Source: a bacterium (GTDB taxonomy: Bacteria > Patescibacteriota > Minisyncoccia > JBBINA01). Taken from it: 64,000 nt of DNA. A model generated the notes under the pieces. The model had not been told where the DNA came from. It ran no database searches and saw nothing but the letters and a program-made list of their open reading frames with translations. Shown here piece after piece: positions 17,453 to 37,047 of this stretch. The stretch spans positions 13,961-77,960 of the forward strand of contig JBBINA010000001.1 in the NCBI GenBank assembly GCA_037444125.1, given 5' to 3'. Position 1 is the first letter of the stretch, and each line of letters opens with the position of its first letter. Both the position numbers and the translations under genes were made by a program.

Positions 17453-18906
17453 GAAAGATTTTAAATTTTAACAATATAAAGTTATCCGAGAAAAAACTTA
17501 TTGCTCCATATATATTAGACACGGCAGTTAATCTTGAGTTTGCAGGTTACAATGATCAGCAGATAAAAAAGGAATTCGGGTTTTCCAATGTTTTTGAATT
17601 AAGCTATTTTATTCATCAGTATAGGCTTTGCCCTAAACCTTTTTTGGTAAAATCGAATAAATGGCAAGATAAGTTTTTAGCTAGTGATTCGATTAGGTTA
17701 AAAATATTTGAGTGGTTTTATTTTGGTCTAGCTAATTCTTTACTAGCCTTGGTTATTTTTTTTACTCTTTGGTTTACTGAATCAGGACATATTTTAAAAC
17801 CGATTGAAGGTTTAATAATTGTATTGTTGAGTCACATTTTTGCTTCTAGTTGGGCGAGAATACTGATTGTTAAGTTTTCATTTTATAACGATAGACCAAT
17901 AGCTGGTTATGGCGAGAAGACAATTAATCAGTATTATCTTAGGGGCCTATTTGGGATTATAACGGCAGGCATTATTTTGTTTTTTTTGTTTAGCAGAGAT
18001 AATATTTTTACCCTCGTTTTTATAGACATATCTTTATTTTGGCTTAATATAGGATATTTTGTTGCGTTTCGTCAGTTACCAATTTATTTAATAACCTTAG
18101 GTAGTATCTTGTTTCTTGGCAGTATCTATGATCCTTTTGTGCTATTTGGTGTTTTTAATGGCGTTATGATTTTTTATATTTGGCTCAAATATTTAATTAA
18201 CTTGGCGCGTGAACCATTTTCAGTTTATTCCAATTCATTTAGTAATAATTCATTGAATTTATTTTCTTTATTTTTTTTTGCTATTAATTATGGTTTCTTG
18301 CTGTTGATTGATGTCATTGTTTTGTTTTTCTATGGCCAGTTTGATACATATGATATTTTTATTCATCAGTATCTTGCCCATAAGTATTTTGGTATATTTC
18401 CTTTACTTTTGTCGGCGGGTCTTATTGAGGCATTTGGTGTTTATTTTTTTAGCAAGATTATTCGTTTGGAGCGAGTCATAAAAGAAAGCACAGTTATGTT
18501 CAATGAAATAATAAAAAACTATATCCAGACTATTAGCATTTTTTCAATGCTGCACTTTGGTGTAACGATATTAGTATCCTTCATTATTCCATTAAGCAAT
18601 GGTTATTTTAAAGAAGTTTATATTAGTTCAACTATTGGTGTTATGTTTTTGCTTTTGAGTTTGTTTAATTTGAACATTCTTCATTATTTGGGATGGCGTA
18701 AAGATTTGTGGTTTGGTATAGTTAGTTTATTTGTGGGATATGTTTATGGCAGTTTAATGTTTTATAATGTTGCCGCATACGCTGTTGTTTATGGTTTTTT
18801 GATGGCCGGGATTGTCTTTTTTGTCACAACAATGGCTTTGTTGTTGAAAAAAGCTTTACGGTATAGCTACTTAGTTTATTTAACTTCTGTATTGCCAAAG
18901 TTATAA
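17449..18906 (+). CDS. polytopic membrane protein (about 12 TM; candidate polysaccharide exporter/polymerase, PelG-like by architecture only)
   Basis: 485 aa, ~70-aa soluble N-term then multiple TM helices; ATGA overlap with upstream GT4, TAATG overlap with downstream gene. Confidence 0.55.
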   Translation: MRKILNFNNIKLSEKKLIAPYILDTAVNLEFAGYNDQQIKKEFGFSNVFELSYFIHQYRLCPKPFLVKSNKWQDKFLASDSIRLKIFEWFYFGLANSLLALVIFFTLWFTESGHILKPIEGLIIVLLSHIFASSWARILIVKFSFYNDRPIAGYGEKTINQYYLRGLFGIITAGIILFFLFSRDNIFTLVFIDISLFWLNIGYFVAFRQLPIYLITLGSILFLGSIYDPFVLFGVFNGVMIFYIWLKYLINLAREPFSVYSNSFSNNSLNLFSLFFFAINYGFLLLIDVIVLFFYGQFDTYDIFIHQYLAHKYFGIFPLLLSAGLIEAFGVYFFSKIIRLERVIKESTVMFNEIIKNYIQTISIFSMLHFGVTILVSFIIPLSNGYFKEVYISSTIGVMFLLLSLFNLNILHYLGWRKDLWFGIVSLFVGYVYGSLMFYNVAAYAVVYGFLMAGIVFFVTTMALLLKKALRYSYLVYLTSVLPKL

Positions 18907-20111
18907 TGAGGGCTTTTTTATTTATATTAATGATAGTAATGATATTGGTTGGTGTAGCGGTTGGTGATGCTTTTTTAAGTGCAGCGGCTATTTTTGAAAG
19001 GCCGATTCTTCGAGGGCCAAGCAACGGCAAATTAATAAACGAAACTCCTATTATATTTACCTGGTCTAAAATTAAAAACGAGCCTAGATACCAAATTGAT
19101 ATTTCTCTTTCAGCCGATTTTAATAAGATAATAATTACAGAAACAGTTATTGGAAATACTTATACGCTTAGGTTTTTAGATAATGATGGTATATATTATT
19201 GGCGAGTTAAATTAGCAGGGTTAATGTTTTTTTTAGCTCCATGGTCAGAAGTTTATAAATTTACTTATAAAAAAAAATTAAAAGATCAGGTTTTAACTGA
19301 ATTAAGCCAGTCTGAATTTAAACAGCCAATTTTTCGGTTTAGAAACTGGGTATCTTATTATGGCAGCAATAAAATCGAGGAATTAAAAAAGTTCGAGCTT
19401 GTTGTTATTGATGCAGATAAAGATATAGGAAATTATACTGACGAGGAGTTGCGTCAACTCAGAGATTCTGGGTCATTAGTAGTGAGTTATTTAAATATTG
19501 GTTCATGTGAAACCTTTCGTACTTATTGGTATTTGTGTCAAAAGTTTAAACTTAAGCCATATAAAGGGTATTCAGATGAATATTGGATGGATGTGACTAA
19601 TATTGACTATCAAAATTTTATAGTCAATATTTTAGCTAAAAACCTTGTTTCGCAGGGCATAAACGGTTTGTATTTGGATAACATTGATATATATCAGGAA
19701 AGTTTTAACGGAAGGACAATAGCAGAAATCAAGGCAGGATTAGCTAATATTATTGTTGCCTTAAGGAGAACATATCCTGATTTGCTTCTTATTGCTCAAA
19801 ACGGCGTCTACGCTTCTTATGATGATATTTTATATTTTAGTTCAACAATTACTGATTCAAAACCACTTTATACTTTTATTGATGGTGAGTCTCACGAGGA
19901 AGTTTTTACTAATACTAGCGAAACTCAGTCTATAGTAAGTATGCTACAAGATCTTAAGAGCAAAGGTTTGTTTATTTTAAACCTTGAGTATTTGGAAGAC
20001 CTTCAAGATATTGATAGAATAAGAGATATTTATAACCGCTCTATCCAAAACGGGTTTTTGCCATATATTTCAGATGTAAAGCTTGACAAAATTTACCTTT
20101 GGAATTTTTAA
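18906..20111 (+). CDS. secreted GH114-like glycoside hydrolase (endo-alpha-1,4-polygalactosaminidase / PelA-hydrolase / TM1410 family) with N-terminal Ig/FN3-like domain
   Basis: signal/TM N-term; motifs VVSYLNIGSCETFRTYWY and GLYLDNIDIY typical of the GH114 TIM barrel. Confidence 0.65.
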   Translation: MRAFLFILMIVMILVGVAVGDAFLSAAAIFERPILRGPSNGKLINETPIIFTWSKIKNEPRYQIDISLSADFNKIIITETVIGNTYTLRFLDNDGIYYWRVKLAGLMFFLAPWSEVYKFTYKKKLKDQVLTELSQSEFKQPIFRFRNWVSYYGSNKIEELKKFELVVIDADKDIGNYTDEELRQLRDSGSLVVSYLNIGSCETFRTYWYLCQKFKLKPYKGYSDEYWMDVTNIDYQNFIVNILAKNLVSQGINGLYLDNIDIYQESFNGRTIAEIKAGLANIIVALRRTYPDLLLIAQNGVYASYDDILYFSSTITDSKPLYTFIDGESHEEVFTNTSETQSIVSMLQDLKSKGLFILNLEYLEDLQDIDRIRDIYNRSIQNGFLPYISDVKLDKIYLWNF

Positions 20112-20262: not shown

Positions 20263-20517
20263 TTAGAGCATGAGTTTGAGCATTATTAAGAGGAGTAGTA
20301 TTGGAATAATTAATAGTTTAGCTAGTATCAAGCCGCGAGTGACACCAAATCGCTTCATAAATATTTTGGCTATTGGATTGCTTTTGTACTCAATATTACC
20401 AGTTTTCCTAAAGAATAAAATGGTGCTGTGAAAATCAAGAACATTCAATATAAGATAATAAATGATTAAAAGCAGTTGGGGCGAAATTCCCCTGGCGTCG
20501 CCAACTAGTATAGACAA
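20263..20517 (-). CDS. hypothetical small membrane protein
   Basis: 84 aa, two hydrophobic helices; isolated on minus strand in an intergenic gap. Confidence 0.3.
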   Translation of the reverse strand: MSILVGDARGISPQLLLIIYYLILNVLDFHSTILFFRKTGNIEYKSNPIAKIFMKRFGVTRGLILAKLLIIPILLLLIMLKLML

Positions 20518-20724
20518 GGTCGTGAAGACTATTATGAAACTATTATGGTAGCGTCGACCATAATAATAATAATAACGACTTTCTTATATTTGATCACCCC
20601 TTTTTATTTTCTAGAGACAGCGCTTCTGATTGATATTATAAATAAAGTATTTGTCAATAACCAAGTAACTTGCAATAATTTTTAGAAGCTATAAAATAAC
20701 AGATAAAATAAAATATCTTTTTAT

Positions 20725-22026
20725 ATGAAGTTTATCTGCGATTTTGAGATTCATTCGCGGTATTCCCGTGCCTGTAGTAAAAATATTAGTCTTGAGGAAA
20801 TAGCTCGTTGGGCTCAGATTAAAGGCATTAAACTTGTTGGCACAGGTGATTTTACGCACCCTTTTTGGTTCAAAGAAATAAAAGAAAAATTGGAGGAAAA
20901 AGAGCGCGGTTTTTTTAGCTTAAAGGAGCAATATATAAAGCTAGCTAATAAAAATAAAGATATTCCCATCGCGATTAAAAAAGACGCTGTGCGGTTTTTA
21001 TTAAGCGCGGAAGTTAATTGTATTTATCATAAGAATCAAAAGTTGCGCAAGGTTCATCATATTATTCTTGCGCCTGATCTTGCAACAGTAGAGAAAATAA
21101 ACGAGTCGTTATCTTGGTATGGCAAATTGGCTAGCGATGGACGACCAATAATTACCCTTAGCTCAAAAGAGCTTTTGAAGAAGCTTTTGGATATAAATGT
21201 CCAGATCTTACTTATCCCGGCGCATTGTTGGACGCCTTGGTTTGGTATTTTTGGTTCGAAGTCCGGTTATGATTCGCTTGAAGAATGCTTTGACGAGTTG
21301 ACTAAATATGTTTATGCGATTGAAACAGGTCTTTCTTCTGACCCTGAGATGAATTGGCGCATTCCTTGGCTTAAGGATGTAGCTATTTTATCAAGCTCTG
21401 ATGCTCATTCTTGCCCAAAGATAGGCCGTGAGGCAACTTGTTTTGATACTGAATTTAGTTATAATGGATTATACGAAGCTATTAAAACAAATAGTTCCTC
21501 AAAAATCGCCTATACGATTGAATTTTTTCCCGAAGAAGGTAAGTATCATTATGATGGACATCGTCATTGCAATATTTCATTGTCTCCCCTAGAAAGTGAA
21601 AAATATGGTGGTATTTGTCCTCATTGCAGTTTACCGTTTACTTTGGGCGTGCTGAATCGTGTGTATAAATTAGGTAAACAGGGGATAATTGAAAAGCCAA
21701 TGAATAGACCGCCATTTTATAAAATAGTTCCGTTAGAAGAAGTACTCTCTGAGGTGTTTGGTTTGCCAGTCGGCTCGAAGACTTTACGGATTAAATATTT
21801 TGAAACTGTGGGGGCGTTGGGTGAAGAATTTAAGATATTACTAGAACTTGATTTTCATGAGATTCAGCAACTAAATGAAAGATTGGCTGAAGCTGTAACT
21901 AAAATAAGAAAGGGTGAAATCGTTATTAAACCAGGCTATGATGGCGTTTTTGGAGTAGTGAGAGTGTTTCCTGAAAGTCAATATGTTGCTGAAGAGGAAA
22001 ATATTTTTCAGGAGCCACTTCTTTAA
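20725..22026 (+). CDS. endonuclease Q-like PHP-domain nuclease with C-terminal zinc ribbon (TIGR00375-like)
   Basis: N-term DFEIHSRYSRACSK...LVGTGDFTHPFW, central HHIIL...PAHCWTPW...SSSDAHS and CPHCSLPF zinc ribbon match the archaeal EndoQ pattern. Confidence 0.7.
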   Translation: MKFICDFEIHSRYSRACSKNISLEEIARWAQIKGIKLVGTGDFTHPFWFKEIKEKLEEKERGFFSLKEQYIKLANKNKDIPIAIKKDAVRFLLSAEVNCIYHKNQKLRKVHHIILAPDLATVEKINESLSWYGKLASDGRPIITLSSKELLKKLLDINVQILLIPAHCWTPWFGIFGSKSGYDSLEECFDELTKYVYAIETGLSSDPEMNWRIPWLKDVAILSSSDAHSCPKIGREATCFDTEFSYNGLYEAIKTNSSSKIAYTIEFFPEEGKYHYDGHRHCNISLSPLESEKYGGICPHCSLPFTLGVLNRVYKLGKQGIIEKPMNRPPFYKIVPLEEVLSEVFGLPVGSKTLRIKYFETVGALGEEFKILLELDFHEIQQLNERLAEAVTKIRKGEIVIKPGYDGVFGVVRVFPESQYVAEEENIFQEPLL

Positions 22027-22038
22027 TGTTTTGAGAAA

Positions 22039-22410
22039 ATGGATGCCAAAAATTTTCAAGTTTCTCAATTTCTTTTAGATGAAATTAGACATAGTTTGAT
22101 CGATTTTTTTACTGATTGGTTTTTGGCTTATCCTAAAAAAATCCTAAAAGGACTTATTTTGAATTTCAAAGAGTTTGATAAATCTTTAGGCTTACAAGCA
22201 ATGGCTAAAAATTGGCTTAATCCTTTGTATCAAGATTACAATATTTGGGGTTATATTATTGGCGTTACAATTAGGACAGTTTATATTTTTATTGGCGGGG
22301 CTAGTTTCTTTGCTATTTATGTTATTGTTGGCTTTTTAATTTTAGCTTTATGGTACGCTTTCCCAATTCTAATATTTATTTTATTTTTTAGAAATCTTTT
22401 TGGGATCTAA
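22039..22410 (+). CDS. hypothetical small membrane protein
   Basis: 123 aa, soluble N-term plus 2 C-terminal TM; 12 nt after the EndoQ-like gene and 2 nt before the Clp-like gene. Confidence 0.45.
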   Translation: MDAKNFQVSQFLLDEIRHSLIDFFTDWFLAYPKKILKGLILNFKEFDKSLGLQAMAKNWLNPLYQDYNIWGYIIGVTIRTVYIFIGGASFFAIYVIVGFLILALWYAFPILIFILFFRNLFGI

Positions 22411-22412
22411 TT

Positions 22413-25049
22413 ATGGATAAAAAGCAATTAGAGAATCTTTATTTTGAAGATTTTTTTACAACACTTTCTTCGGCAGAAAGAAGCACTTTACAGATGTTGG
22501 CGCGGTTTTTTTGGTATTGTGTTTTTGGACTTGGATTTATTTTCTTTATTATCGGATTAAATCAAAGTTTATTTTCGCCCAGACTCCTTGTGTCCCTATT
22601 TTTTGAACGCTCATTTTACTACGCCCTATTTTGGTTAGGCCTTTTTTTGTTGTTGTATTTTTTTCATCACTTCTATAAGAGTCGAAAACCTCGTCTTAAT
22701 TTACGAGAAATTGATCTTGTTTCTGAACTTAAATATAGGAAAATAAATAGCGCTTACTTTTTGGAGCCAGAGACAAAAAATTTTATTATTAATGTATTTG
22801 AGAGGAGCAAAAAAGAACTAATCAAAATTGATTTTAGTTTATTTGAGGCTCTTTTAGAAACTAAGTTTTTTGAGAATGTGCTTGATCATTTGGAAACTAG
22901 TTTAGAAAAAATTAAAAACCGTTATCAAACAGCGCGTAACGAGATTAAAAGATATAAAAATAGCAACGAGCTCTTAATTGATTTTGACGATTTAATAAGA
23001 GAGGCGGTTAATAATGCTTTGGTTTTTGATGACGAGGCTGTTGATTTGACTCATTTAATGGTTGCAATTTTAAAGCGGGAGAATAAATTCTTTAGCGATA
23101 TTTTTTTAGGCGAGAATATTGATTTTGACGATGTTAAGCACGTTTTGTTTTATAAAAAGCTACGGCATAAATATTTATATCTGATTCATAAGTCAAAACC
23201 GCGCCGTATTGAGCATAAGTATATGGATTTGGCTATGACAGCAAAGCCAACTTATTATTTAGATCAATTCTCTCATGACCTAACTGACTTGGCGCGTTAT
23301 GGCATTATTGGCTTTGTGATTGGCCATAAAGACGAAACCGAAGAGTTGATTAATATTTTGAATCTCGATGTTAAAAATAATGCAATGTTGATTGGACCTA
23401 CGGGTATTGGTAAAACAACTATTATTGAAAATTTAGCTTGGCGCGTGTTTCGCGGTACAGTGCCGCCAAAACTGCGTGATAAACGTGTAGTTGCTTTGGA
23501 TACTGGTTCTATTTTAAGTGGCTTAAAGACGCCCGGTGAGTTGCAAGAAAGATTAAGCAAAATCCGTGATGAAATTTTAAATGCCAAAAATTTGATTTTA
23601 GTGATTCCCGATCTTCACGATTTAATGAAGGCTACTTCTATGCAGGCAATTTCTTTGTCTTCTTTCTTTAGCTCTGTTTTTCAGATGACAGATTTCCCAT
23701 TATTGGCGACTACAGATGAGAAGAATTATCATCTTTATATTGAGCCGGACACTGAAATAATTAATGCTTTTAATCAGATTAAAATTAGGGAAATTTCTCC
23801 TGAGGAAGCTTTGTATCTTCTTATGATTGAATCTTTTAAGATTGAAGCTAAGAAAAATGTAGTGATAAGTTATTATGCTTTAAAGGAGACAGTTGAGATT
23901 GCTGTGAAATATATTCATAATCAACCCTTGCCTGGTAAAGCGACCTTATTGCTTTATGATGGTGTGGAAAATGTTTTAGCGCAAGGTAAAAGATTAGTGA
24001 CCAAGGAAAACCTGCGTGAAACTTTTACTAAAAGGACAGGTATACCTATTACCCAGACAAAGGGAGAGGAGAAAAGAATACTGTTGGAACTTGAGCAAAT
24101 TTTACATCAACGTATGGTTGATCAAGAACAGGCCGTTAAGGTTATTGCTGAAGCCTTACGAGAAGCGCGAACCGGCCTTGGTCATGAAAAGGGTCCTATT
24201 GGGACTTTTCTTTTTGTTGGTCCTACAGGCGTTGGAAAAACAGAAATGGCCAAAACTTTAGCTAGTTATTATTTTAAAGGCGAAGATAAAATGCTTCGTT
24301 TTGATATGTCGGAATATCAAACAAATGACGCTATTTATCGATTGATTGGTTATCGTGGTCAAGGCGGGTTTTTAACAGAGGCAGTTAAACAAAACCCATT
24401 TTCATTGGTGCTGTTGGATGAATTTGAAAAAGCCAATCGGGACGTTTTGAATCTTTTTTTGCAAGTTTTTGATGACGGTCGTCTTACTGATGAGCTTGGT
24501 AATGTGGTTGATTTTACTAACACTATTATTATTTGCACTTCTAATGCCCATTCGGTTTTGATTAAGGAGGAATTAGAAAAAGGACGAAATATTCAAGAGT
24601 TAAGAGATATTATGAAACAACGGCTTACTGATTATTTTAAACCAGAACTAATTAATCGATTTGATGAGATTGTGGTTTTTAAGCCATTGAGTTCTGACGA
24701 TATAAGAAAAATTGCCTTACTACAGATTGGGAGACTTTTTTGGCAATTGGAGAATGATAAGGGTTTTAAATTTAAAATAAGCGAACGAGCGCTTAATAGG
24801 ATAGCTCGAGTTGGTTTTGATCCGGTTTATGGGGCTCGTCCGTTAAGACAGGCTATTCGTAAGAAAATAAAAAATTTAATTTCTCTTTTAATTTTACAAG
24901 ATAGGCTTGAGCGAGGTAAACATTATTTGCTTGATTATGAGGAAAATAAAGACTTTTTCGTCATTGACGAAAATCTTAGAACTACTTTAAAATTGGAGGC
25001 GCAGGAGAGAATAAAATCTGCTAAAGAGGAAATAAAGGGTGGCAAATAA
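22413..25049 (+). CDS. ClpC/ClpB-family double AAA+ ATPase with N-terminal transmembrane segments
   Basis: 2-3 N-terminal TM helices, Clp_N-like repeat, D1 Walker A LIGPTGIGKTT, D2 FLFVGPTGVGKTE, LLDEFEKA, sensor/ClpB_D2-small. Confidence 0.85.
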   Translation: MDKKQLENLYFEDFFTTLSSAERSTLQMLARFFWYCVFGLGFIFFIIGLNQSLFSPRLLVSLFFERSFYYALFWLGLFLLLYFFHHFYKSRKPRLNLREIDLVSELKYRKINSAYFLEPETKNFIINVFERSKKELIKIDFSLFEALLETKFFENVLDHLETSLEKIKNRYQTARNEIKRYKNSNELLIDFDDLIREAVNNALVFDDEAVDLTHLMVAILKRENKFFSDIFLGENIDFDDVKHVLFYKKLRHKYLYLIHKSKPRRIEHKYMDLAMTAKPTYYLDQFSHDLTDLARYGIIGFVIGHKDETEELINILNLDVKNNAMLIGPTGIGKTTIIENLAWRVFRGTVPPKLRDKRVVALDTGSILSGLKTPGELQERLSKIRDEILNAKNLILVIPDLHDLMKATSMQAISLSSFFSSVFQMTDFPLLATTDEKNYHLYIEPDTEIINAFNQIKIREISPEEALYLLMIESFKIEAKKNVVISYYALKETVEIAVKYIHNQPLPGKATLLLYDGVENVLAQGKRLVTKENLRETFTKRTGIPITQTKGEEKRILLELEQILHQRMVDQEQAVKVIAEALREARTGLGHEKGPIGTFLFVGPTGVGKTEMAKTLASYYFKGEDKMLRFDMSEYQTNDAIYRLIGYRGQGGFLTEAVKQNPFSLVLLDEFEKANRDVLNLFLQVFDDGRLTDELGNVVDFTNTIIICTSNAHSVLIKEELEKGRNIQELRDIMKQRLTDYFKPELINRFDEIVVFKPLSSDDIRKIALLQIGRLFWQLENDKGFKFKISERALNRIARVGFDPVYGARPLRQAIRKKIKNLISLLILQDRLERGKHYLLDYEENKDFFVIDENLRTTLKLEAQERIKSAKEEIKGGK

Positions 25050-25110
25050 TCTTTTGTCGTAATTATCATAGACCTTTTTTTTGGAATTTGTAAACGTTAG
25101 ATGTTTTCAT

Positions 25111-25138
25111 TTGACTTACTGCATTAATTTTTTATAAT
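25111..25138 (+). promoter_or_regulatory. near-consensus sigma70-type promoter TTGACT-16-TATAAT
   Basis: seen directly; about 350 nt upstream of the next CDS (25489). Confidence 0.5.
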
Positions 25139-25367
25139 ATAGTTTTCTCTGATATTGCGAGCTATAAGCAAACTTTAGTTGACGATGACAAAGCAATTTC
25201 AGAGAAAATTCTTCTTTTGGTGTTGTGAAAAGGAGCAAAACATTTTTGTTGATAGTGTTCTAACAACCTAAAGAAGTTCTTTTGTAACCCCGTGGTCTAA
25301 GTCATAAGACTTTTGACCAGAATGTTGTGAATGACCGTGAAACTTCTGTTGAGGTAGCTAGACAACT

Positions 25368-25410
25368 CCTTGTTTTTTTATATTATTTTTGGAGGTTCGA
25401 TCTCCAAAAA
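25368..25410. repeat. short repeated hairpin element copy R1 (CCTTGTTT...TTTTTGGAGGTTCGATCTCCAAAAA)
   Basis: 8-bp stem TTTTGGAG/CTCCAAAA with 7-nt loop; a related copy at 34043-34098. Confidence 0.4.
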
Positions 25411-25488
25411 TGCGGTGTTATAAATTTAAGTCCTTGACAAATTTTATTTTAGCTTATATAATTAATAAGTAAATTTTGATTTTATTTA

Positions 25489-26340
25489 ATGATTAATAAT
25501 AAAGAAAAAAATCCCAACAAACGAGACTATGAAATACCTGGCGATTTACCTTTGGTTAATGAAGAAGAGGATAATGAAGTTGTAAAAGATAAAACTGAAG
25601 AAACGGTTGATAACGACAAAGTAGATCAAATGCAAGAAAAAGATACATCCATAGAGAGGTTAATCAAAGATGAAGAAATAGCCAAACAAGCTGCTGATTT
25701 TATGCGGCGTACTAGCGAAGACTCCACTGAGATGAGAAGTGCCATGGGTAGCATTAAAGATGTGTTAAAGCTGTTTCTTCCATTGGTTGCTGTTTTCCTG
25801 TTTTTAATACTTATCCTTGTATTTTTGATTTATCGAGTTAATAAAGCTATTTTGAATAACCTAGATTTTTTGCGCCGTGAAGATTTGGGTCAACGCAGTG
25901 GTGTTATTATTGATAAAAGTAATGGTTCAATAGAAGTTGCTATTTTTGATCCAGTGACTAGCGATAAAAAAAAACTAAGGTTTGAGTTGGATAACTTTTC
26001 TGAATTTTCCGAGGTTAATCTTAATTTCTGTTATGTTTGGAAAGAGCATAAGGAAGAGATGGCTCGGATTATGCCTAAACGTCCTTGGTATCCGACGCTT
26101 TTATTATATGTTTTACAGTGGACTTCGATGTCGCCTTCCCTTTATCCGCCGTTTCCATGTGACCGTCAAGAGATTGCTGATCGAGGGATGATTTTTGAAG
26201 ACAAAATAGGTCTTGGCGAATTAAGGAAAAACGACTATGTGATTATAAAGGCTAAGCGTAAAGGGGATAAGTTAAGTATAGCTAAAGTTTGGAAGATTGA
26301 GCCTACATTTTTAATGCCACTTTTGACTAATAAGCAATAA
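25489..26340 (+). CDS. hypothetical protein (acidic N-term, one TM, C-terminal domain)
   Basis: 283 aa ORF, no recognisable motifs. Confidence 0.5.
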   Translation: MINNKEKNPNKRDYEIPGDLPLVNEEEDNEVVKDKTEETVDNDKVDQMQEKDTSIERLIKDEEIAKQAADFMRRTSEDSTEMRSAMGSIKDVLKLFLPLVAVFLFLILILVFLIYRVNKAILNNLDFLRREDLGQRSGVIIDKSNGSIEVAIFDPVTSDKKKLRFELDNFSEFSEVNLNFCYVWKEHKEEMARIMPKRPWYPTLLLYVLQWTSMSPSLYPPFPCDRQEIADRGMIFEDKIGLGELRKNDYVIIKAKRKGDKLSIAKVWKIEPTFLMPLLTNKQ

Positions 26341-26788: not shown

Positions 26789-26813
26789 ACTACATTAAAT
26801 TAAATACAGAAGC

Positions 26814-26846
26814 AAAAAGTGTGTAGTTAAAACTACGCACTTTTTG
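26814..26846. terminator. bidirectional rho-independent terminator between convergent genes
   Basis: A-tract, 10-bp stem GTGTGTAGTT/AACTACGCAC, T-tract. Confidence 0.65.
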
Positions 26847-26891
26847 TTTAGGTTTTTTATGTATTTGGATTCCAGCTTATTTTTAAAAAAA

Positions 26892-29800
26892 TCATTTGGA
26901 AAGTTCTTCTAAATCTTCGGCAATAATTTTAATTTGGTTTTCAAATCTTTCCACTTTGCCTTTAATGATTAAAACATTTTCTTCGCGGAGGCACATATGT
27001 TTTAGCTCGTAGAGGTTGGGAAAAACGATACATTCTGCAGAGCCGGTGAGATCTTCAATACGGCAAAAAGCCATTCGTTTGTTGTTACGCGTCAAGACTT
27101 TTTTTAAATTAGTTATAAGCGCTACTGTTTTGACGGTTTTCAGGTTCGATTGGCGGATTTTCTTTAAACTGTAGCCTAGCGAGAGTTTGTGTTGAAAACT
27201 TTTTAAAGGATGGCCTGAAATATACAATCCTAAAAATTCTTTTTCCCATCGTAGTTTATCGTTTTCATAAGTGTCTTGGTCAGGAAATTTTTCTAGTTTT
27301 AAATTTAATGATTGTTGTTCGTCGAATAGCGTTTCTTGCATACCGATAGTTTCTTTTTCACGGTTCATTTTAAGAAGATAGTCAATATTATATAAAAGCT
27401 GTAGCCTGTTTTCGCCTAATTGGTCAAAGCATCCCGATTTAATCAGGGCTTCAAAACTTTTCTTGTTGAGATCTTTGTGTTTAACCCGCTGAATGAAGTC
27501 AGCCAAGTTTTTAAAATTTCCATTGGCGTTTCTTGTTTCGACAATGCTTTTGGCTAAATTTTCGCCAACATTACGTATGGCTCCTAGGCCAAATCTTATT
27601 TGGAGAACATCACCTTTTTCAATAGGTGTGAAATTTTCATCGCTTTCATTGATATCAGGCGGTAGTACTTCAATATTTAGACGTTTTGTTTCATCAAGAA
27701 GTTGGGCAATTCTTTCTATTTTATAGCCTTCATTAATTAAAAGGGCGCAGATAAAATAAAGTGGGAAGCTAGCTTTAAGGTAAGCAGTGCGATAGGCAAT
27801 AACAGCGTAGCAAGCCGCGTGAGATCTGTTGAAGCCATAGCGCGCGAATGGTATAAACCAGTTCCAGATGCGTTTAGCCACTTGTTCTTTTATTCCATTT
27901 TTTACCATACCTGTAACTAGTTTTTCGCCTTCTTCAATTAGTAGGGATTTTATTTTTTTACCAACGGCTCTTCTTAATTTGTCTGCTTGAGAATAGCTGA
28001 AGCCGGCAAGTTGACGAGCTATCTCTATAAGTTGTTCCTGATAAACGGCAATACCGTAAGTTTTATTTAAGATTGGTTCAAGGCCGGGGTGAAGATATTC
28101 AATTTTTTCGAGTTTGTTTTTGCGATTGATGTAATGTTCAACTTGCCCCGCGTCGAGAGGTCCTGGCCTATAGAGTGATATCATAGCAATAATGTCTTCA
28201 AGTTCTGTGGGTTTAAGTTCAGATAAATATCGGCGCATGCCATCAGATTCAAGTTGAAATACGCCGACAGTAGAGCCATCTTGGAGAATTTCGAAAGTCT
28301 TTTTATCAGTATAGTCATCTTTTTCAATATCAAGGTTAATATTTTTATATTTTTTGATTAAACTTAAGGTATCTTCGATGATGGTTAGATTTCTCAGGCC
28401 AAGAAAGTCCATTTTGAGCAAGCCTATTTCTTCAATCGCTTTCATATCGTATTGGCTAATGATTGTGTTATTTTTGTCTTTTGAATCAGTTGTAGCGTAT
28501 TGTAGTGGTAAATAATTATGTAGCGCCTTATCTGCCATTACGACTCCACAGGCATGTTTTGAAACGTGACGCGCAACTCCTTCAAGATCTATAGCGATGT
28601 CAATTAGTTCGCGAACTTTAGGATCAGAGGTATATTGTTTGCGTAGCTCGGGTATTTCTAATGAAGCTTTTTTTAAAGGATAGTTAGTTGGGATGAGTTT
28701 TGAAATTGAATCACAGAATGAATATGGCAGTCCCAAGATGCGTCCAACGTCTCTTACGGCCTGCTTTGATTTTATTTTTCCGAAAGTAATAATTTGAGCC
28801 ACATTATTTTGTCCATATTTTTGACGAGCATATTCAATTACTTCATCACGGCGTCTATCAGCAAAGTCAATATCAATATCAGGAAAGGTAATTCTTTCTG
28901 GATCTAGGAATCTTTCAAACATAAGGCCATATTTTAAGGGATCAATGTCGGTGATATTTAAGGCATAAGAGACAAGACTGCCGGCTGCCGATCCGCGACC
29001 CGGCCCTACCACGATTCGGTTTTGCTTGGCGTAATTAACGAAATCTTGGACAATCAGCAAGTAAGAGGAGAAACCAGTTTGTTGGATGACTTTAAGTTCA
29101 TAATCGAGACGTTTTTTGATAGTTTGTTTTTGTGTTTTAGTGAGTTGATCGAAATTAAATCGTTTTTTAATGCCAGCATTAGCTAATTTTTTTAAGTAGC
29201 TAAAATCAGTTTCGCCGGGAGGAACTTTAAAAATTGGCATTATTTTTTTCTTTGCCTCAAGGTCAAGATGAATTGAGTCTTTGATAATAGAGGTATTAAC
29301 AAGAGATTCTTCCGGCAGATCGAGCAAATTAATATACTGCATCATTTTTGCTTCATCAGGAAAGGAGAAATCTTCTTTTTTCATAGAAAGCCTTTCTTCT
29401 GGATCGCTTTCATTGGTTTGAATTGCGATTAAAACATCTTGTGCTGTTTTATGGGTTGATTTAATATAATGACTATCATAAGTTAGAACCAGCGGAATTT
29501 TTAAAGATTTGGAAAAATCGATAAGTGCTTTATTGACAATTTGTTGTTCGGGGATATTTGGATGAGGTTGAAGTTCAAGATAAAAATTATTTTTACCGAA
29601 TATGCCATACATTTTATCAATTAACTTTTTAGCTTCATTTATTTTACCAGCCAGTATTGTTTTTGATATTTGGCTATTAAGACATCCTGAAAAACATATA
29701 AGGCCTTCAGAATGTTTAGTTAGAAGTTCAAGGTCGATTCTTGGTTTATAATAAAAGCCTTCCAGCCATGATTTTGTAACTAATTGAATTAAATTATGAT

Positions 29801-30101
29801 AGCCAACAAGATTTTTGGCTAGAATTGTAAGATGGTATCTTTTTTGATCAACTTTGGGAATTTTGCTCGTATAAGAACCCGCCGCCACATAAAATTCGCA
29901 GCCGATGATTGGTTTTATGCCCTTTTCTTTGCAAGCTTTATAAAACTCGATGGCTCCGTATAAGTTGCCATGATCTGTTAGGGCAACGGCGTCCATACCA
30001 AAATCAACGCATCTGTCGATAATATCTTCAATCCGCGAAAGTCCATCAAGGAGGGAATAATTGGAGTGAGTATGAAGATGTATAAAACGAGATTTAGCCA
30101 T
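26892..30101 (-). CDS. dnaE: DNA polymerase III alpha subunit
   Basis: 1069 aa; PHP domain N-term HLHTHSNYSLLDG, polymerase core, OB fold. Confidence 0.97.
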   Translation of the reverse strand: MAKSRFIHLHTHSNYSLLDGLSRIEDIIDRCVDFGMDAVALTDHGNLYGAIEFYKACKEKGIKPIIGCEFYVAAGSYTSKIPKVDQKRYHLTILAKNLVGYHNLIQLVTKSWLEGFYYKPRIDLELLTKHSEGLICFSGCLNSQISKTILAGKINEAKKLIDKMYGIFGKNNFYLELQPHPNIPEQQIVNKALIDFSKSLKIPLVLTYDSHYIKSTHKTAQDVLIAIQTNESDPEERLSMKKEDFSFPDEAKMMQYINLLDLPEESLVNTSIIKDSIHLDLEAKKKIMPIFKVPPGETDFSYLKKLANAGIKKRFNFDQLTKTQKQTIKKRLDYELKVIQQTGFSSYLLIVQDFVNYAKQNRIVVGPGRGSAAGSLVSYALNITDIDPLKYGLMFERFLDPERITFPDIDIDFADRRRDEVIEYARQKYGQNNVAQIITFGKIKSKQAVRDVGRILGLPYSFCDSISKLIPTNYPLKKASLEIPELRKQYTSDPKVRELIDIAIDLEGVARHVSKHACGVVMADKALHNYLPLQYATTDSKDKNNTIISQYDMKAIEEIGLLKMDFLGLRNLTIIEDTLSLIKKYKNINLDIEKDDYTDKKTFEILQDGSTVGVFQLESDGMRRYLSELKPTELEDIIAMISLYRPGPLDAGQVEHYINRKNKLEKIEYLHPGLEPILNKTYGIAVYQEQLIEIARQLAGFSYSQADKLRRAVGKKIKSLLIEEGEKLVTGMVKNGIKEQVAKRIWNWFIPFARYGFNRSHAACYAVIAYRTAYLKASFPLYFICALLINEGYKIERIAQLLDETKRLNIEVLPPDINESDENFTPIEKGDVLQIRFGLGAIRNVGENLAKSIVETRNANGNFKNLADFIQRVKHKDLNKKSFEALIKSGCFDQLGENRLQLLYNIDYLLKMNREKETIGMQETLFDEQQSLNLKLEKFPDQDTYENDKLRWEKEFLGLYISGHPLKSFQHKLSLGYSLKKIRQSNLKTVKTVALITNLKKVLTRNNKRMAFCRIEDLTGSAECIVFPNLYELKHMCLREENVLIIKGKVERFENQIKIIAEDLEELSK

Positions 30102-36040: not shown

Positions 36041-37047
36041 ATGCCTATACGAATTGGTCTGAATGGTTTTGGGCGGACAGCGCGGACTTTTTTTAGAATT
36101 GTAAGCGAAAGTCCATCGGTTGAGCTTGAGGTTGTAGCTATTAATGTAAAAAGTCAAAGCCCAGAGCAAGCAGCTTATTTACTTAAATATGATTCAGTAT
36201 ATGGACGATACTCCAAAGATGTATTGTATAACGATAAAACCATCAAAATAGAAGGTTGCGAAGTTCCGATTCTACAGGTTTCAGACCCGGCAGAAGTTCC
36301 TTGGTTTAAGTTTGATGTAGATATAGTTGTCGAAGCAACTGGGAAGTTTAGATCATTTGATAAAGCAGCTAAACATCTTGCCAGCGGTGGAGTTAAAAAA
36401 GTGCTTATTACTGCGCCGGCAAAAGGCGATATTCCCACTATTGTCTTTGGGGTTAATGACAATATTTATAACAAAAAGAGGTATCATATAATTTCAGCTG
36501 TTTCTTGTACTACTAATTGTTTGGCACCTGTGGCTTTATTTTACATAAAGAGTTTGGAATAAAAAGGGGTTTAATGACTACGGTTCATGCTTATACTGGT
36601 AGTCAAAATTTAGTGGATAGCAGTAACGAAGATATGGTTGAAGGCCGGGCGGCGGCTGTCAATATTATTCCGACAACAACAGGAGCGGCTAGCGTCATAG
36701 GTTTAGTAATCCCGGAACTGAAGGATAAACTTGATGGTATGGCTTTTCGCGTGCCCGTTCCTACAGGATCAGTGATTGACCTAGTAGTGGAATTAGAGAA
36801 GAAGGTTCTTGTTGAAGAGGTTAATAATATTTTTAAGCAATACGCTTTTGGTCAATTTAAGAAAACACTTGGTATTTCTGAGTGGCCATTAGTTTCCTCA
36901 GATTGTATTGGCGATAGCAGATCTGCCATTGTTGATTTAAGCTCAACTAAGATTATTGATGGAGACTTTTTAAAAGTAGTAGCTTTTTATGATAATGAGT
37001 GGGGTTATTCTGCGAGACTTGTTGATATTGCTAAAATGCTTTTATAA
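36041..37047 (+). CDS. gapA: glyceraldehyde-3-phosphate dehydrogenase, interrupted by a 1-nt frameshift near 36535-36545
   Basis: GLNGFGR, SCTTNCLAP then frame switch, then GLMTTVHAYT; two overlapping ORFs 36041..36562 and 36517..37047; strong SD AAAGGAGGT. Confidence 0.85.

Follow-up and report, generated by a model that had tools for sequence, protein, structure and literature searches.

An endonuclease Q gene followed by a small membrane protein and a membrane-anchored Clp-like ATPase in a patescibacterial genome

In a 64,000-nucleotide stretch of a Patescibacteriota genome (assembly GCA_037444125.1, contig JBBINA010000001.1, positions 13,961 to 77,960; hereafter the window), a gene for an endonuclease Q (EndoQ)-like protein is followed closely by genes for a small hydrophobic protein and for a Clp-like ATPase with N-terminal membrane helices. 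The locus raises the question of whether the three genes work as one module, as proposed in a first-pass annotation of the sequence, or whether a repair nuclease simply adjoins something else. Three open reading frames (ORFs) encoding 433, 123 and 878 amino acids (aa) were found on the + strand at the positions of that annotation, with the same spacers of 12 nt (TAA...ATG) and then 2 nt. What is new is the pair of the small protein and the transmembrane (TM) Clp protein, a variant of Hsp100/Clp for which there is no Pfam or NCBIfam family model. The reading that we favour, with about an even chance of being right, is that an ordinary EndoQ stands beside an obligate patescibacterial pair, a membrane-tethered AAA+ remodeller acting without ClpP or DnaK, and that the adjacency of EndoQ is inherited gene order. 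The features of the locus are as follows, in window coordinates.

20651..20679, +: promoter-like site 5' of the EndoQ gene, TTGTCA-17-AATAAT with a TG extension (10/12 matches in a consensus scan)
20725..22026, +: EndoQ family nuclease, 433 aa, with a PHP-type catalytic domain, an HxxC...CxxC zinc finger and a C-terminal domain
22039..22410, +: small partner, 123 aa, with an N-terminal helix of ~57 residues, a P-L-Y-x-D-Y loop and a C-terminal hydrophobic hairpin (~73-120)
22413..25049, +: membrane-anchored double AAA+ ATPase derived from Hsp100/Clp, 878 aa (Pfam, NCBIfam, ClpB and fold matches)
22506..22670, +: TM hairpin of the ATPase, residues 32-50 and 68-86 (hydropathy, AlphaFold2 (AF2) model, family conservation)
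22758..23171, +: Clp_N-like double-repeat N-domain, residues ~116-253 (profile-profile comparison)
23259..23972, +: degenerate first AAA+ ring, D1 (alignment to ClpB 1qvr, Clp alignment, family census)
24195..24926, +: intact second AAA+ ring, D2, with D2-small (Pfam, alignments, census)

The small protein and the Clp-like ATPase

Loci were collected through the small protein alone, from 12 species-representative genomes and 25 metagenome contigs, and also through relatives of the ATPase. In all 35 assessable non-redundant loci the ATPase gene lies directly 3' of the small gene, and in 32 of them the two genes overlap or are separated by at most 10 nt. Every pair locus with a taxon label belongs to Patescibacteria. 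Genes 2 and 3 are an obligate pair. The position immediately 5' of the pair is less constant, being occupied by EndoQ in 8, by a family-4 uracil-DNA glycosylase (UDG4) in 15 and by neither in 11 of 34 loci. The gene linkage proposed in the first-pass annotation is thus conserved for the last two genes, with EndoQ upstream in a minority of loci, and its description as a module not reported as a unit is correct when applied to the pair but unproven when applied to the trio. In the literature that we covered, which is incomplete, no description of a small-protein/TM-Clp family or operon was found.

The small partner matched no Pfam, NCBIfam or PADLOC family. A profile search gave at least 348 clusters at 90% identity, mostly unnamed or called 'hypothetical protein'; the named members are from Patescibacteria, and two stray JGI labels were the only specific names. 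Residues W27, P62, L63, Y64, D66, G71, G75, R79 and W105 are invariant in this family. Hydropathy analysis gave two C-terminal hydrophobic segments, in agreement with the small protein with two TM segments that had been predicted. In the AF2 model (pLDDT 82) there are two long helices, the C-terminal one spanning both hydrophobic segments, and the PLYxDY motif sits in the loop between them. A fold search with this model found no match in the PDB.

The ATPase matched AAA_2 (E value 1e-51, residues 595-753), ClpB_D2-small (6e-19, residues 759-838) and ClpB of 1qvr (2.5e-115). Every NCBIfam Clp model scored far below its cut-off, with 477.4 against 1232.1 bits for ClpB (TIGR03346) and 420 against 993 for ClpA. 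Clp_N, two AAA+ modules and D2-small are all present, and on these domains the protein can be placed in class 1 of Hsp100/Clp in the broad sense. The N-domain was recognized by hhalign, in which 102 family N-domains aligned with 60 canonical Clp N-domains over 139 columns (probability 98.8%, E 1.2e-16); Pfam Clp_N hits in the relatives are weak or faint. The AF2 model of the ATPase (pLDDT 81) shows this domain as all-helical.

Ahead of the N-domain are the two TM helices, with Wimley-White octanol values of -15.1 kcal/mol for residues 32-50 and -18.4 kcal/mol for residues 68-86, and with AF2 helices at residues 20-53 and 68-90. Homologues with as little as 34% identity have kept the hairpin, and so have 149 representative sequences. 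A basic stretch, HHFYKSRKPR (net charge +3), follows the second helix, because of which the ATPase body is predicted by the positive-inside rule to be cytoplasmic. False TM helices created by a wrong start codon were considered and rejected, because the hairpin and a preceding LYFxDP motif are conserved across the family; moreover, the ATG lies 2 nt past the preceding stop codon, and the next methionine (M29) is still ahead of the first helix. The N-terminal helices of the original description are therefore no start artefact.

The two AAA+ rings differ in their state. D1 aligns to ClpB D1 (E 6e-30) and keeps its Walker A motif (GPTGIGKT), but Walker B reads IPDLH where the canonical form is IDELH, the pore loop is KTPG and not the canonical KYRG, and with INAFNQ in place of ERRFQ the ring has no arginine-finger pair. 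In D2, Walker A (GPTGVGKT), Walker B (LLDEFEKA), the sensor-1 TSN and the GARPLR arginine finger are present. The D2 pore loop (GYRGQGG) is 6 residues shorter, with its tyrosine kept in the window copy. The middle domain is absent, about 125 residues of ClpB having no counterpart (query 516-529 against ClpB 387-521). Where a Saccharibacteria ClpC (P0096) has its LGF ClpP-docking loop, the ATPase has a 13-residue deletion, and neither IGF nor LGF is found. A ClpP-dependent protease subunit was rejected as an identity because this docking loop is missing, and no clpP, clpX or second Clp gene was found in the 64-kb window when the first-pass annotation's suggestion to look for clpP was followed. 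A role in anti-phage defence was also rejected, since the one PADLOC match was a generic, ClpB-like hit to DolB, with none for the partner genes.

To compare these features across the family, residues 1-531 of the ATPase were used as a query against 1.8 billion representatives, which gave 375 clusters at E <1e-30. From these, 149 members with N-terminal hydrophobic segments and no middle domain were set against 102 cytosolic Clp proteins, with the following counts.

D1 Walker B 'DE': TM family 5/149; cytosolic Clp 100/102
D1 arginine finger: TM family 23/149; cytosolic Clp 100/102
D1 pore-loop aromatic: TM family 7/149; cytosolic Clp 100/102
D2 pore-loop aromatic: TM family 25/149; cytosolic Clp 100/102
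D2 Walker A (GPTGVGKT): TM family 146/149; cytosolic Clp 78/102, with conservative variants in most others
D2 Walker B 'DE': TM family 146/149; cytosolic Clp 102/102

In the TM family the sensor-1 TSN is present in 142 of the 149 members, the GARP motif is intact, and the linker is shorter than 45 residues in all. The region of the ClpP-docking loop is shorter than in cytosolic Clp (median 34 residues against 41). The typical D2 loop reads G-S-P-D-G-K-x-x-G, and Lys or Arg occurs in the shortened loop in 85/149. A rough neighbour-joining tree divides the ATPases into three clades, A, B and C, and clade A has a conserved Asp in this loop (SPDGK); the subclade of the window (GYRG/GYKG) belongs to the minority that keeps the D2 tyrosine. 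Judged from these motifs, members of the family are Clp derivatives with a single motor, and most of them no longer have the residues for gripping polypeptides. The label 'membrane-anchored ClpC/ClpB-like double AAA+ unfoldase' of the first-pass annotation is accordingly right as to the double AAA+ architecture, the anchor and the unusual topology, and the word 'unfoldase' is doubtful, because D1 is degenerate, the middle domain and ClpP loop are missing and the pore tyrosines are largely lost in the family.

A conventional threading unfoldase or disaggregase that has moved to the membrane, like FtsH without its protease or like Msp1 or Skd3, and that extracts or disaggregates membrane proteins through the D2 pore, seems unlikely to us; it is in essence the unfoldase of the first-pass annotation. 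Such a machine would be served by the complete catalytic motifs of D2, the retained Clp_N domain and the tyrosine of the window subclade, which HMMER aligned to that of ClpB GYVG, and the D1-D2 core superposes on substrate-bound ClpC and ClpB (TM-score ~0.84, target-normalised). The grpE-dnaK-dnaJ genes are in the window, and the clade C genes lie directly 3' of giant putative surface proteins with M48 or alpha-2-macroglobulin domains. However, the aromatic residue is present in only 25/149 D2 and 7/149 D1 pore loops, the D2 loop is shortened and variable, and if the function depended on the tyrosine, most members could not have lost it. D1 is dead, and both the middle domain for DnaK-dependent activation and the ClpP loop are missing. 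Because the family has largely lost both pore-loop tyrosines, a non-processive switch like that of the Torsins is likelier than threading like that of ClpB; for the window copy threading is possible, because one tyrosine (GYRG) is retained in its shortened D2 loop.

Two further observations concern related ATPases. The clade C proteins (L015 10353-13100, L017 10386-13097) carry an extra N-terminal CxxC...CxxC zinc ribbon. In a separate Clp-like group (P0171, P0198, P0200, P0210, P0218, P0235), the N-terminus contains 3-5 hydrophobic segments, Walker B of D1 is intact (DE) and D2 loops such as APPGHRGAEE occur, which shows that the diversity of membrane-anchored Clp relatives goes beyond the present family.

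EndoQ and the neighbourhood of the pair

By its sequence, gene 1 is a member of the EndoQ family, which is already annotated in these lineages, and hence is not novel. TIGR00375 matched over profile positions 3-372 of 374 (E 1.5e-53; 182.5 bits, curated cut-off 326.6), the P. furiosus EndoQ (PfuEndoQ) structures 5zb8 and 7k30 matched the N-terminal PHP motif and residues 89-420 (E 5e-53), and PF27218 (MJ0043_C) is a precomputed hit on the identical protein P0270. An alignment was made of the 120 closest homologues. The positions that we take to be ligands, going by this alignment, are D6, H10, E96 (AEV), H111 (VHH), H167 (PAH), E (ETG) and D226/H228 (SDAH), and they are invariant in 120/120 and present in the window protein. 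Residue 8 is Glu in the window protein (DFEIHS) and in 7/120 homologues, and His in PfuEndoQ and in 112/120. The zinc ligands are H279-x2-C282...C298-x2-C301, and HxxC...CxxC is present in 120/120. A plain PHP phosphoesterase was rejected on the full-length match to the EndoQ structures, which includes the zinc finger and C-terminal domain. The EndoQ-like PHP nuclease of the first-pass annotation is thus borne out by the structures and by the metal-ligand positions, conserved except for Glu8, together with a profile match that runs end to end but stays below the curated cut-off.

Compared with PfuEndoQ, the homology is full-length, covering the PHP core, the zinc-binding domain and the C-terminal domain; the zinc finger there is CxxC...CxxC, whereas the first pair here is HxxC, and the host here is a bacterium without PCNA. 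By homology to the archaeal enzyme, gene 1 would be an ordinary repair nuclease nicking DNA 5' of uracil, hypoxanthine or abasic sites. Known occurrences of EndoQ are in Euryarchaeota and in a few bacteria, e.g., Bacillus pumilus (PMC6202378). More than 8000 homologues were found at E <1e-20, and the NCBI name 'endonuclease Q family protein' stands on many of them from Staskawiczbacteria, Paceibacterota and Parcubacteria, including those with ~50% identity. Because of this existing annotation the EndoQ gene itself adds little.

The neighbours of the pair follow its clades. Clade A is linked to UDG4, with EndoQ instead in one member, L042. Clade B is linked to EndoQ and holds the window; its loci L007-L009 have lost EndoQ and kept the pair. 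In clade C (L015, L017, L037, L040, L044) the pair occurs without repair genes and follows giant ORFs of 1533-1743 aa (L015 5394-9995, L040 2255-6976, L044 901-6132), one with an M48 peptidase domain, one with alpha-2-macroglobulin domains and one with no family; in L015 the stop and start codons overlap. A UvrD-PD-(D/E)XK helicase-nuclease lies downstream in L037. In L021, a Wolfebacteria genome, the pair stands between a mechanosensitive-channel gene and a gene of the MFS family, with no repair genes. The identities of UDG family 4, PolX and Ogt among the neighbours were confirmed.

The same surroundings also exist without the pair. For EndoQ homologues of ~52% identity, two of three loci (L048, L049) have the repair block in the order EndoQ ... 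PolX-PHP - NUDIX - (Ogt), followed by the convergent rplT-rpmI-infC operon, and between EndoQ and PolX they have GreA, an HD protein, MFS, a CxxC zinc-finger protein or LPG synthase. As a control, the convergent and plainly unrelated rplT was found within 7 kb in 15 of 17 clade A/B loci, which is at least as conserved as the repair genes. Conserved adjacency is therefore weak evidence of shared function here, and because the block exists without the pair and rplT is equally conserved, the region is best described as a frozen gene-order block. Most of the neighbour counts could be accounted for if the pair was inserted just once, before clades A and B diverged. The adjacency would then come from an old stable block, [UDG4 or EndoQ] ... 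PolX-NUDIX-Ogt and then the convergent rplT operon, with the pair sitting inside it in two of its three clades, and EndoQ and the pair would be two things that happen to be co-transcribed.

Several observations weigh against our favoured reading of an inherited order. A uracil-targeting enzyme, UDG4 or EndoQ, is directly 5' of the pair in 23/34 loci, in many cases at a distance of 2-40 nt. PolX (fused to PHP or NUDIX), NUDIX or an Ogt-like gene is within 5 kb downstream in 20/27, and at least one repair gene flanks the pair in 22 of the 26 loci assessable on both sides. Two non-homologous initiators of uracil repair share one slot, L042 being a replacement of UDG by EndoQ inside the UDG clade. 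The trio is intact in the window, L019 and L020 after separation from PolX and rplT, and this retention in the window lineage hints at selection on the link between EndoQ and the pair. On the mechanistic side, the Torsin analogy is incomplete, as the D2 arginine finger is present.

The observations on neighbouring genes also speak for a second explanation, which we hold to be possible but rather unlikely, that the pair is a functional part of base-excision repair (BER), a membrane-tethered AAA+ machine co-expressed with the initiator of uracil repair and with PolX. It could recycle enzymes still bound to their products, such as UDG4 on abasic sites, EndoQ on its nicks, suicide-alkylated Ogt or trapped PolX lyase, or could hold the repair site or nucleoid at the membrane. 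The upstream and downstream repair genes, the tight spacing on both sides of the pair, the in-place swap of analogous enzymes in L042, the persistence of the trio after rearrangement and the helicase-nuclease of L037 all fit such a role, and membrane-associated BER has a precedent in mitochondria (PMC2836570). Conversely, all the associations can stem from the single insertion followed by inheritance, with the rplT operon an equally conserved neighbour and unrelated genes in the place of the pair in the pairless block. Clade C and L021 carry the pair without repair genes, L007-L009 kept it when EndoQ was lost, and short gaps are the rule in these compact genomes. The pore loops show neither conservation nor basic character, clade A having its conserved Asp. 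The repair link of the pair is suggestive but unproven. The coupling of DNA and protein processing that the first-pass annotation suggested is real as an adjacency of EndoQ, and this adjacency may be inherited gene order. Were the link to uracil repair functional, bacterial BER would have in the pair its first accessory factor that is ATP-dependent and tethered to the membrane.

The repair genes were also considered as enzymes cleaning imported DNA, with the pair as a nucleic-acid motor or channel-associated translocase for DNA uptake or export, comparable to FtsK/SpoIIIE or PTEX. Patescibacteria are thought to be dependent on scavenged nucleic acids, a ring ATPase and two hairpin proteins in the membrane could conceivably encircle a pore, and the Lys or Arg of the shortened D2 loop and the repair neighbours would suit this role. 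However, the pore loops are unconserved and often contain Asp or Glu, each of the two hairpins has an external loop of just a few residues, the proteins have no similarity to known DNA translocases, and no competence genes were found near the pair in the loci examined. We regard this explanation as very improbable.

The PolX genes of these loci vary in a further respect. In the EndoQ-linked clade (L001 10578-12011, L003 10601-12112 and L007-L009), the C-terminal PHP nuclease domain of PolX is gone and a NUDIX hydrolase is fused on in its stead, while PolX of the UDG-linked clade has its PHP domain and NUDIX has a gene of its own. The swap tracks the change of the repair initiator, except in L022, where EndoQ is upstream and yet PolX-PHP is kept.

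In the window, the promoter-like site ahead of EndoQ is a pattern match only (regional count 29, shuffled mean 24.5), as is a perfect sigma-70 consensus (TTGACA-17-TATAAT) at 25434-25462, ahead of the next gene. A pattern scan found no convincing terminator between the three genes. A three-gene transcript is consistent with these patterns, which are sequence matches only. The spacer 3' of the ATPase gene (25050-25488, 440 nt) is unusually long for a compact genome and has no Rfam hit; tblastn found no remnants of PolX, UDG, NUDIX or Ogt in the window, including this spacer.

Beyond the spacer are a gene for a 283-aa single-pass membrane protein of no family (25489-26340, +) and one for a 104-aa protein with two CxxC-x17-CxxC treble-clef zinc fingers (TIGR04272/PF23477; 26474-26788, +). 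The same two gene types follow the ATPase in the 77%-identical relative L019 (10684-11997), and a zinc-finger homologue is directly 3' of EndoQ in L049 (7541-7723), a locus without the pair. A strong 18-bp hairpin with a T-run (26810-26849, +), probably a bidirectional terminator, lies between the zinc-finger gene and the convergent dnaE (26892-30101, -). On the other side, a putative gene of 84 aa (20263-20517, -) with two hydrophobic segments and no family hit is divergent from EndoQ, in a 613-nt gap after a gene for a GH114/TIGR01370-like glycoside hydrolase (18906-20111). The window has a G+C content of ~33% and also encodes several aminoacyl-tRNA synthetases and glycolytic genes in addition to dnaE and grpE-dnaK-dnaJ. 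Homologues of all three proteins of the locus are labelled Parcubacteria, Paceibacterota or other Patescibacteria. Glyceraldehyde-3-phosphate dehydrogenase is split into overlapping + strand ORFs (36041-36562, Gp_dh_N; 36517-37047, Gp_dh_C), and the split may reflect a frameshift, a pseudogene or an error of assembly.

Possible working of the pair

For the favoured reading, in which the pair is a membrane-tethered remodeller, we infer the following course. The hairpin of the ATPase would have both ends in the cytoplasm, and a hexameric ring would form at the inner face of the membrane, tethered by its own hairpins and by those of the partner. Clp_N may be kept as an adaptor or substrate-binding domain, with the client recognized through Clp_N, the N-terminal helix of the partner or both. 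D1 may bind nucleotide and would be incapable of hydrolysis, so that the fully competent D2 alone would hydrolyse ATP. The ring would then remodel or release a membrane-proximal client, presumably a protein. Coupling to DnaK is unlikely because the middle domain of ClpB is missing, and coupling to ClpP is unlikely because the docking loop is missing.

A combined alternative would make the pair a bacterial counterpart of Torsin and its cofactor, that is, a non-threading membrane AAA+ switch integrated with uracil and base-excision repair, which might release UDG4, EndoQ, PolX or Ogt from the DNA products of these enzymes or control contact between nucleoid and membrane at sites of repair. This we consider improbable.

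Hsp100/Clp proteins are textbook cytosolic threading motors, and here a large unannotated branch, with at least 149 ATPase clusters at 50% identity, has been rebuilt: it has gained a membrane anchor and an obligate small partner, its D1 is dead, the elements for coupling to DnaK and ClpP are lost, and the pore tyrosines are largely lost across the family. The pair thus offers a bacterial system for asking how a Clp-type ring works without threading, which is an open problem for the eukaryotic Torsins, and two widespread 'hypothetical' genes of a phylum that is still little understood are given an identity.

Comparison with known systems

Among canonical proteins, ClpB/Hsp104 (T. thermophilus 1qvr, E. 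coli) has the same domain order of Clp_N, D1, D2 and D2-small. Its D2 is close (E 2.6e-88 over residues 529-841), and the ClpP-docking loop is absent from both. The present ATPase differs in its TM hairpin, in the absence of the coiled-coil middle domain, in a D1 without Walker B, arginine fingers or pore tyrosine, and in a D2 loop shorter by 6 residues. The best structural matches by Foldseek were ClpC proteins of S. aureus, M. tuberculosis and B. subtilis (TM-score ~0.84 over the D1-D2 core). ClpA is similar in length, without a long middle domain, and HMMER aligned it in a single stretch (283-845 against ClpA 169-740). Unlike ClpC and ClpA, the ATPase here has no IGF/LGF loop and no UVR or short middle domain, and it has a dead D1 and a membrane anchor.

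The DolB profile of the Dodola system in PADLOC matched D2 (E 3.8e-34), which reflects generic similarity to ClpB D2 only. No DolA partner was found; the four neighbouring proteins had no PADLOC hit, and no other defence family was detected among the five proteins. The genomic context also differs from that of Dodola, consisting here of housekeeping genes.

FtsH, a protein of bacterial membrane-proximal quality control, likewise has an N-terminal two-helix anchor followed by a cytoplasmic AAA+ ring. However, FtsH has one AAA domain of the classic clade fused to an M41 metalloprotease, and its two helices are separated by a periplasmic domain, whereas the ATPase described here has two Clp-type rings, a very short external loop and a C-terminus of ClpB_D2-small, with no peptidase family among its Pfam hits.

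Torsins are membrane-associated members of the Clp clade without aromatic pore loops, and their membrane-spanning partners have a degenerate AAA+ scaffold (PMC5425593). Torsin with LAP1 or LULL1, a system of the eukaryotic ER and nuclear envelope, resembles the present pair in its Hsp100/Clp ancestry, in membrane association through an N-terminal hydrophobic region and in having a membrane-spanning partner. The degenerate AAA+ scaffold is supplied in trans by LAP1 in that system and in cis by D1 here. Torsin has a single AAA+ domain and obtains its arginine finger from the cofactor, whereas the ATPase here has two AAA+ modules and its D2 keeps GARPLR; the small partner also differs from the Torsin cofactors, being a 123-aa helical hairpin without an AAA+ fold. 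The resemblance is partial and would be an analogy of mechanism, not membership, with no sign of common descent beyond the Clp clade.

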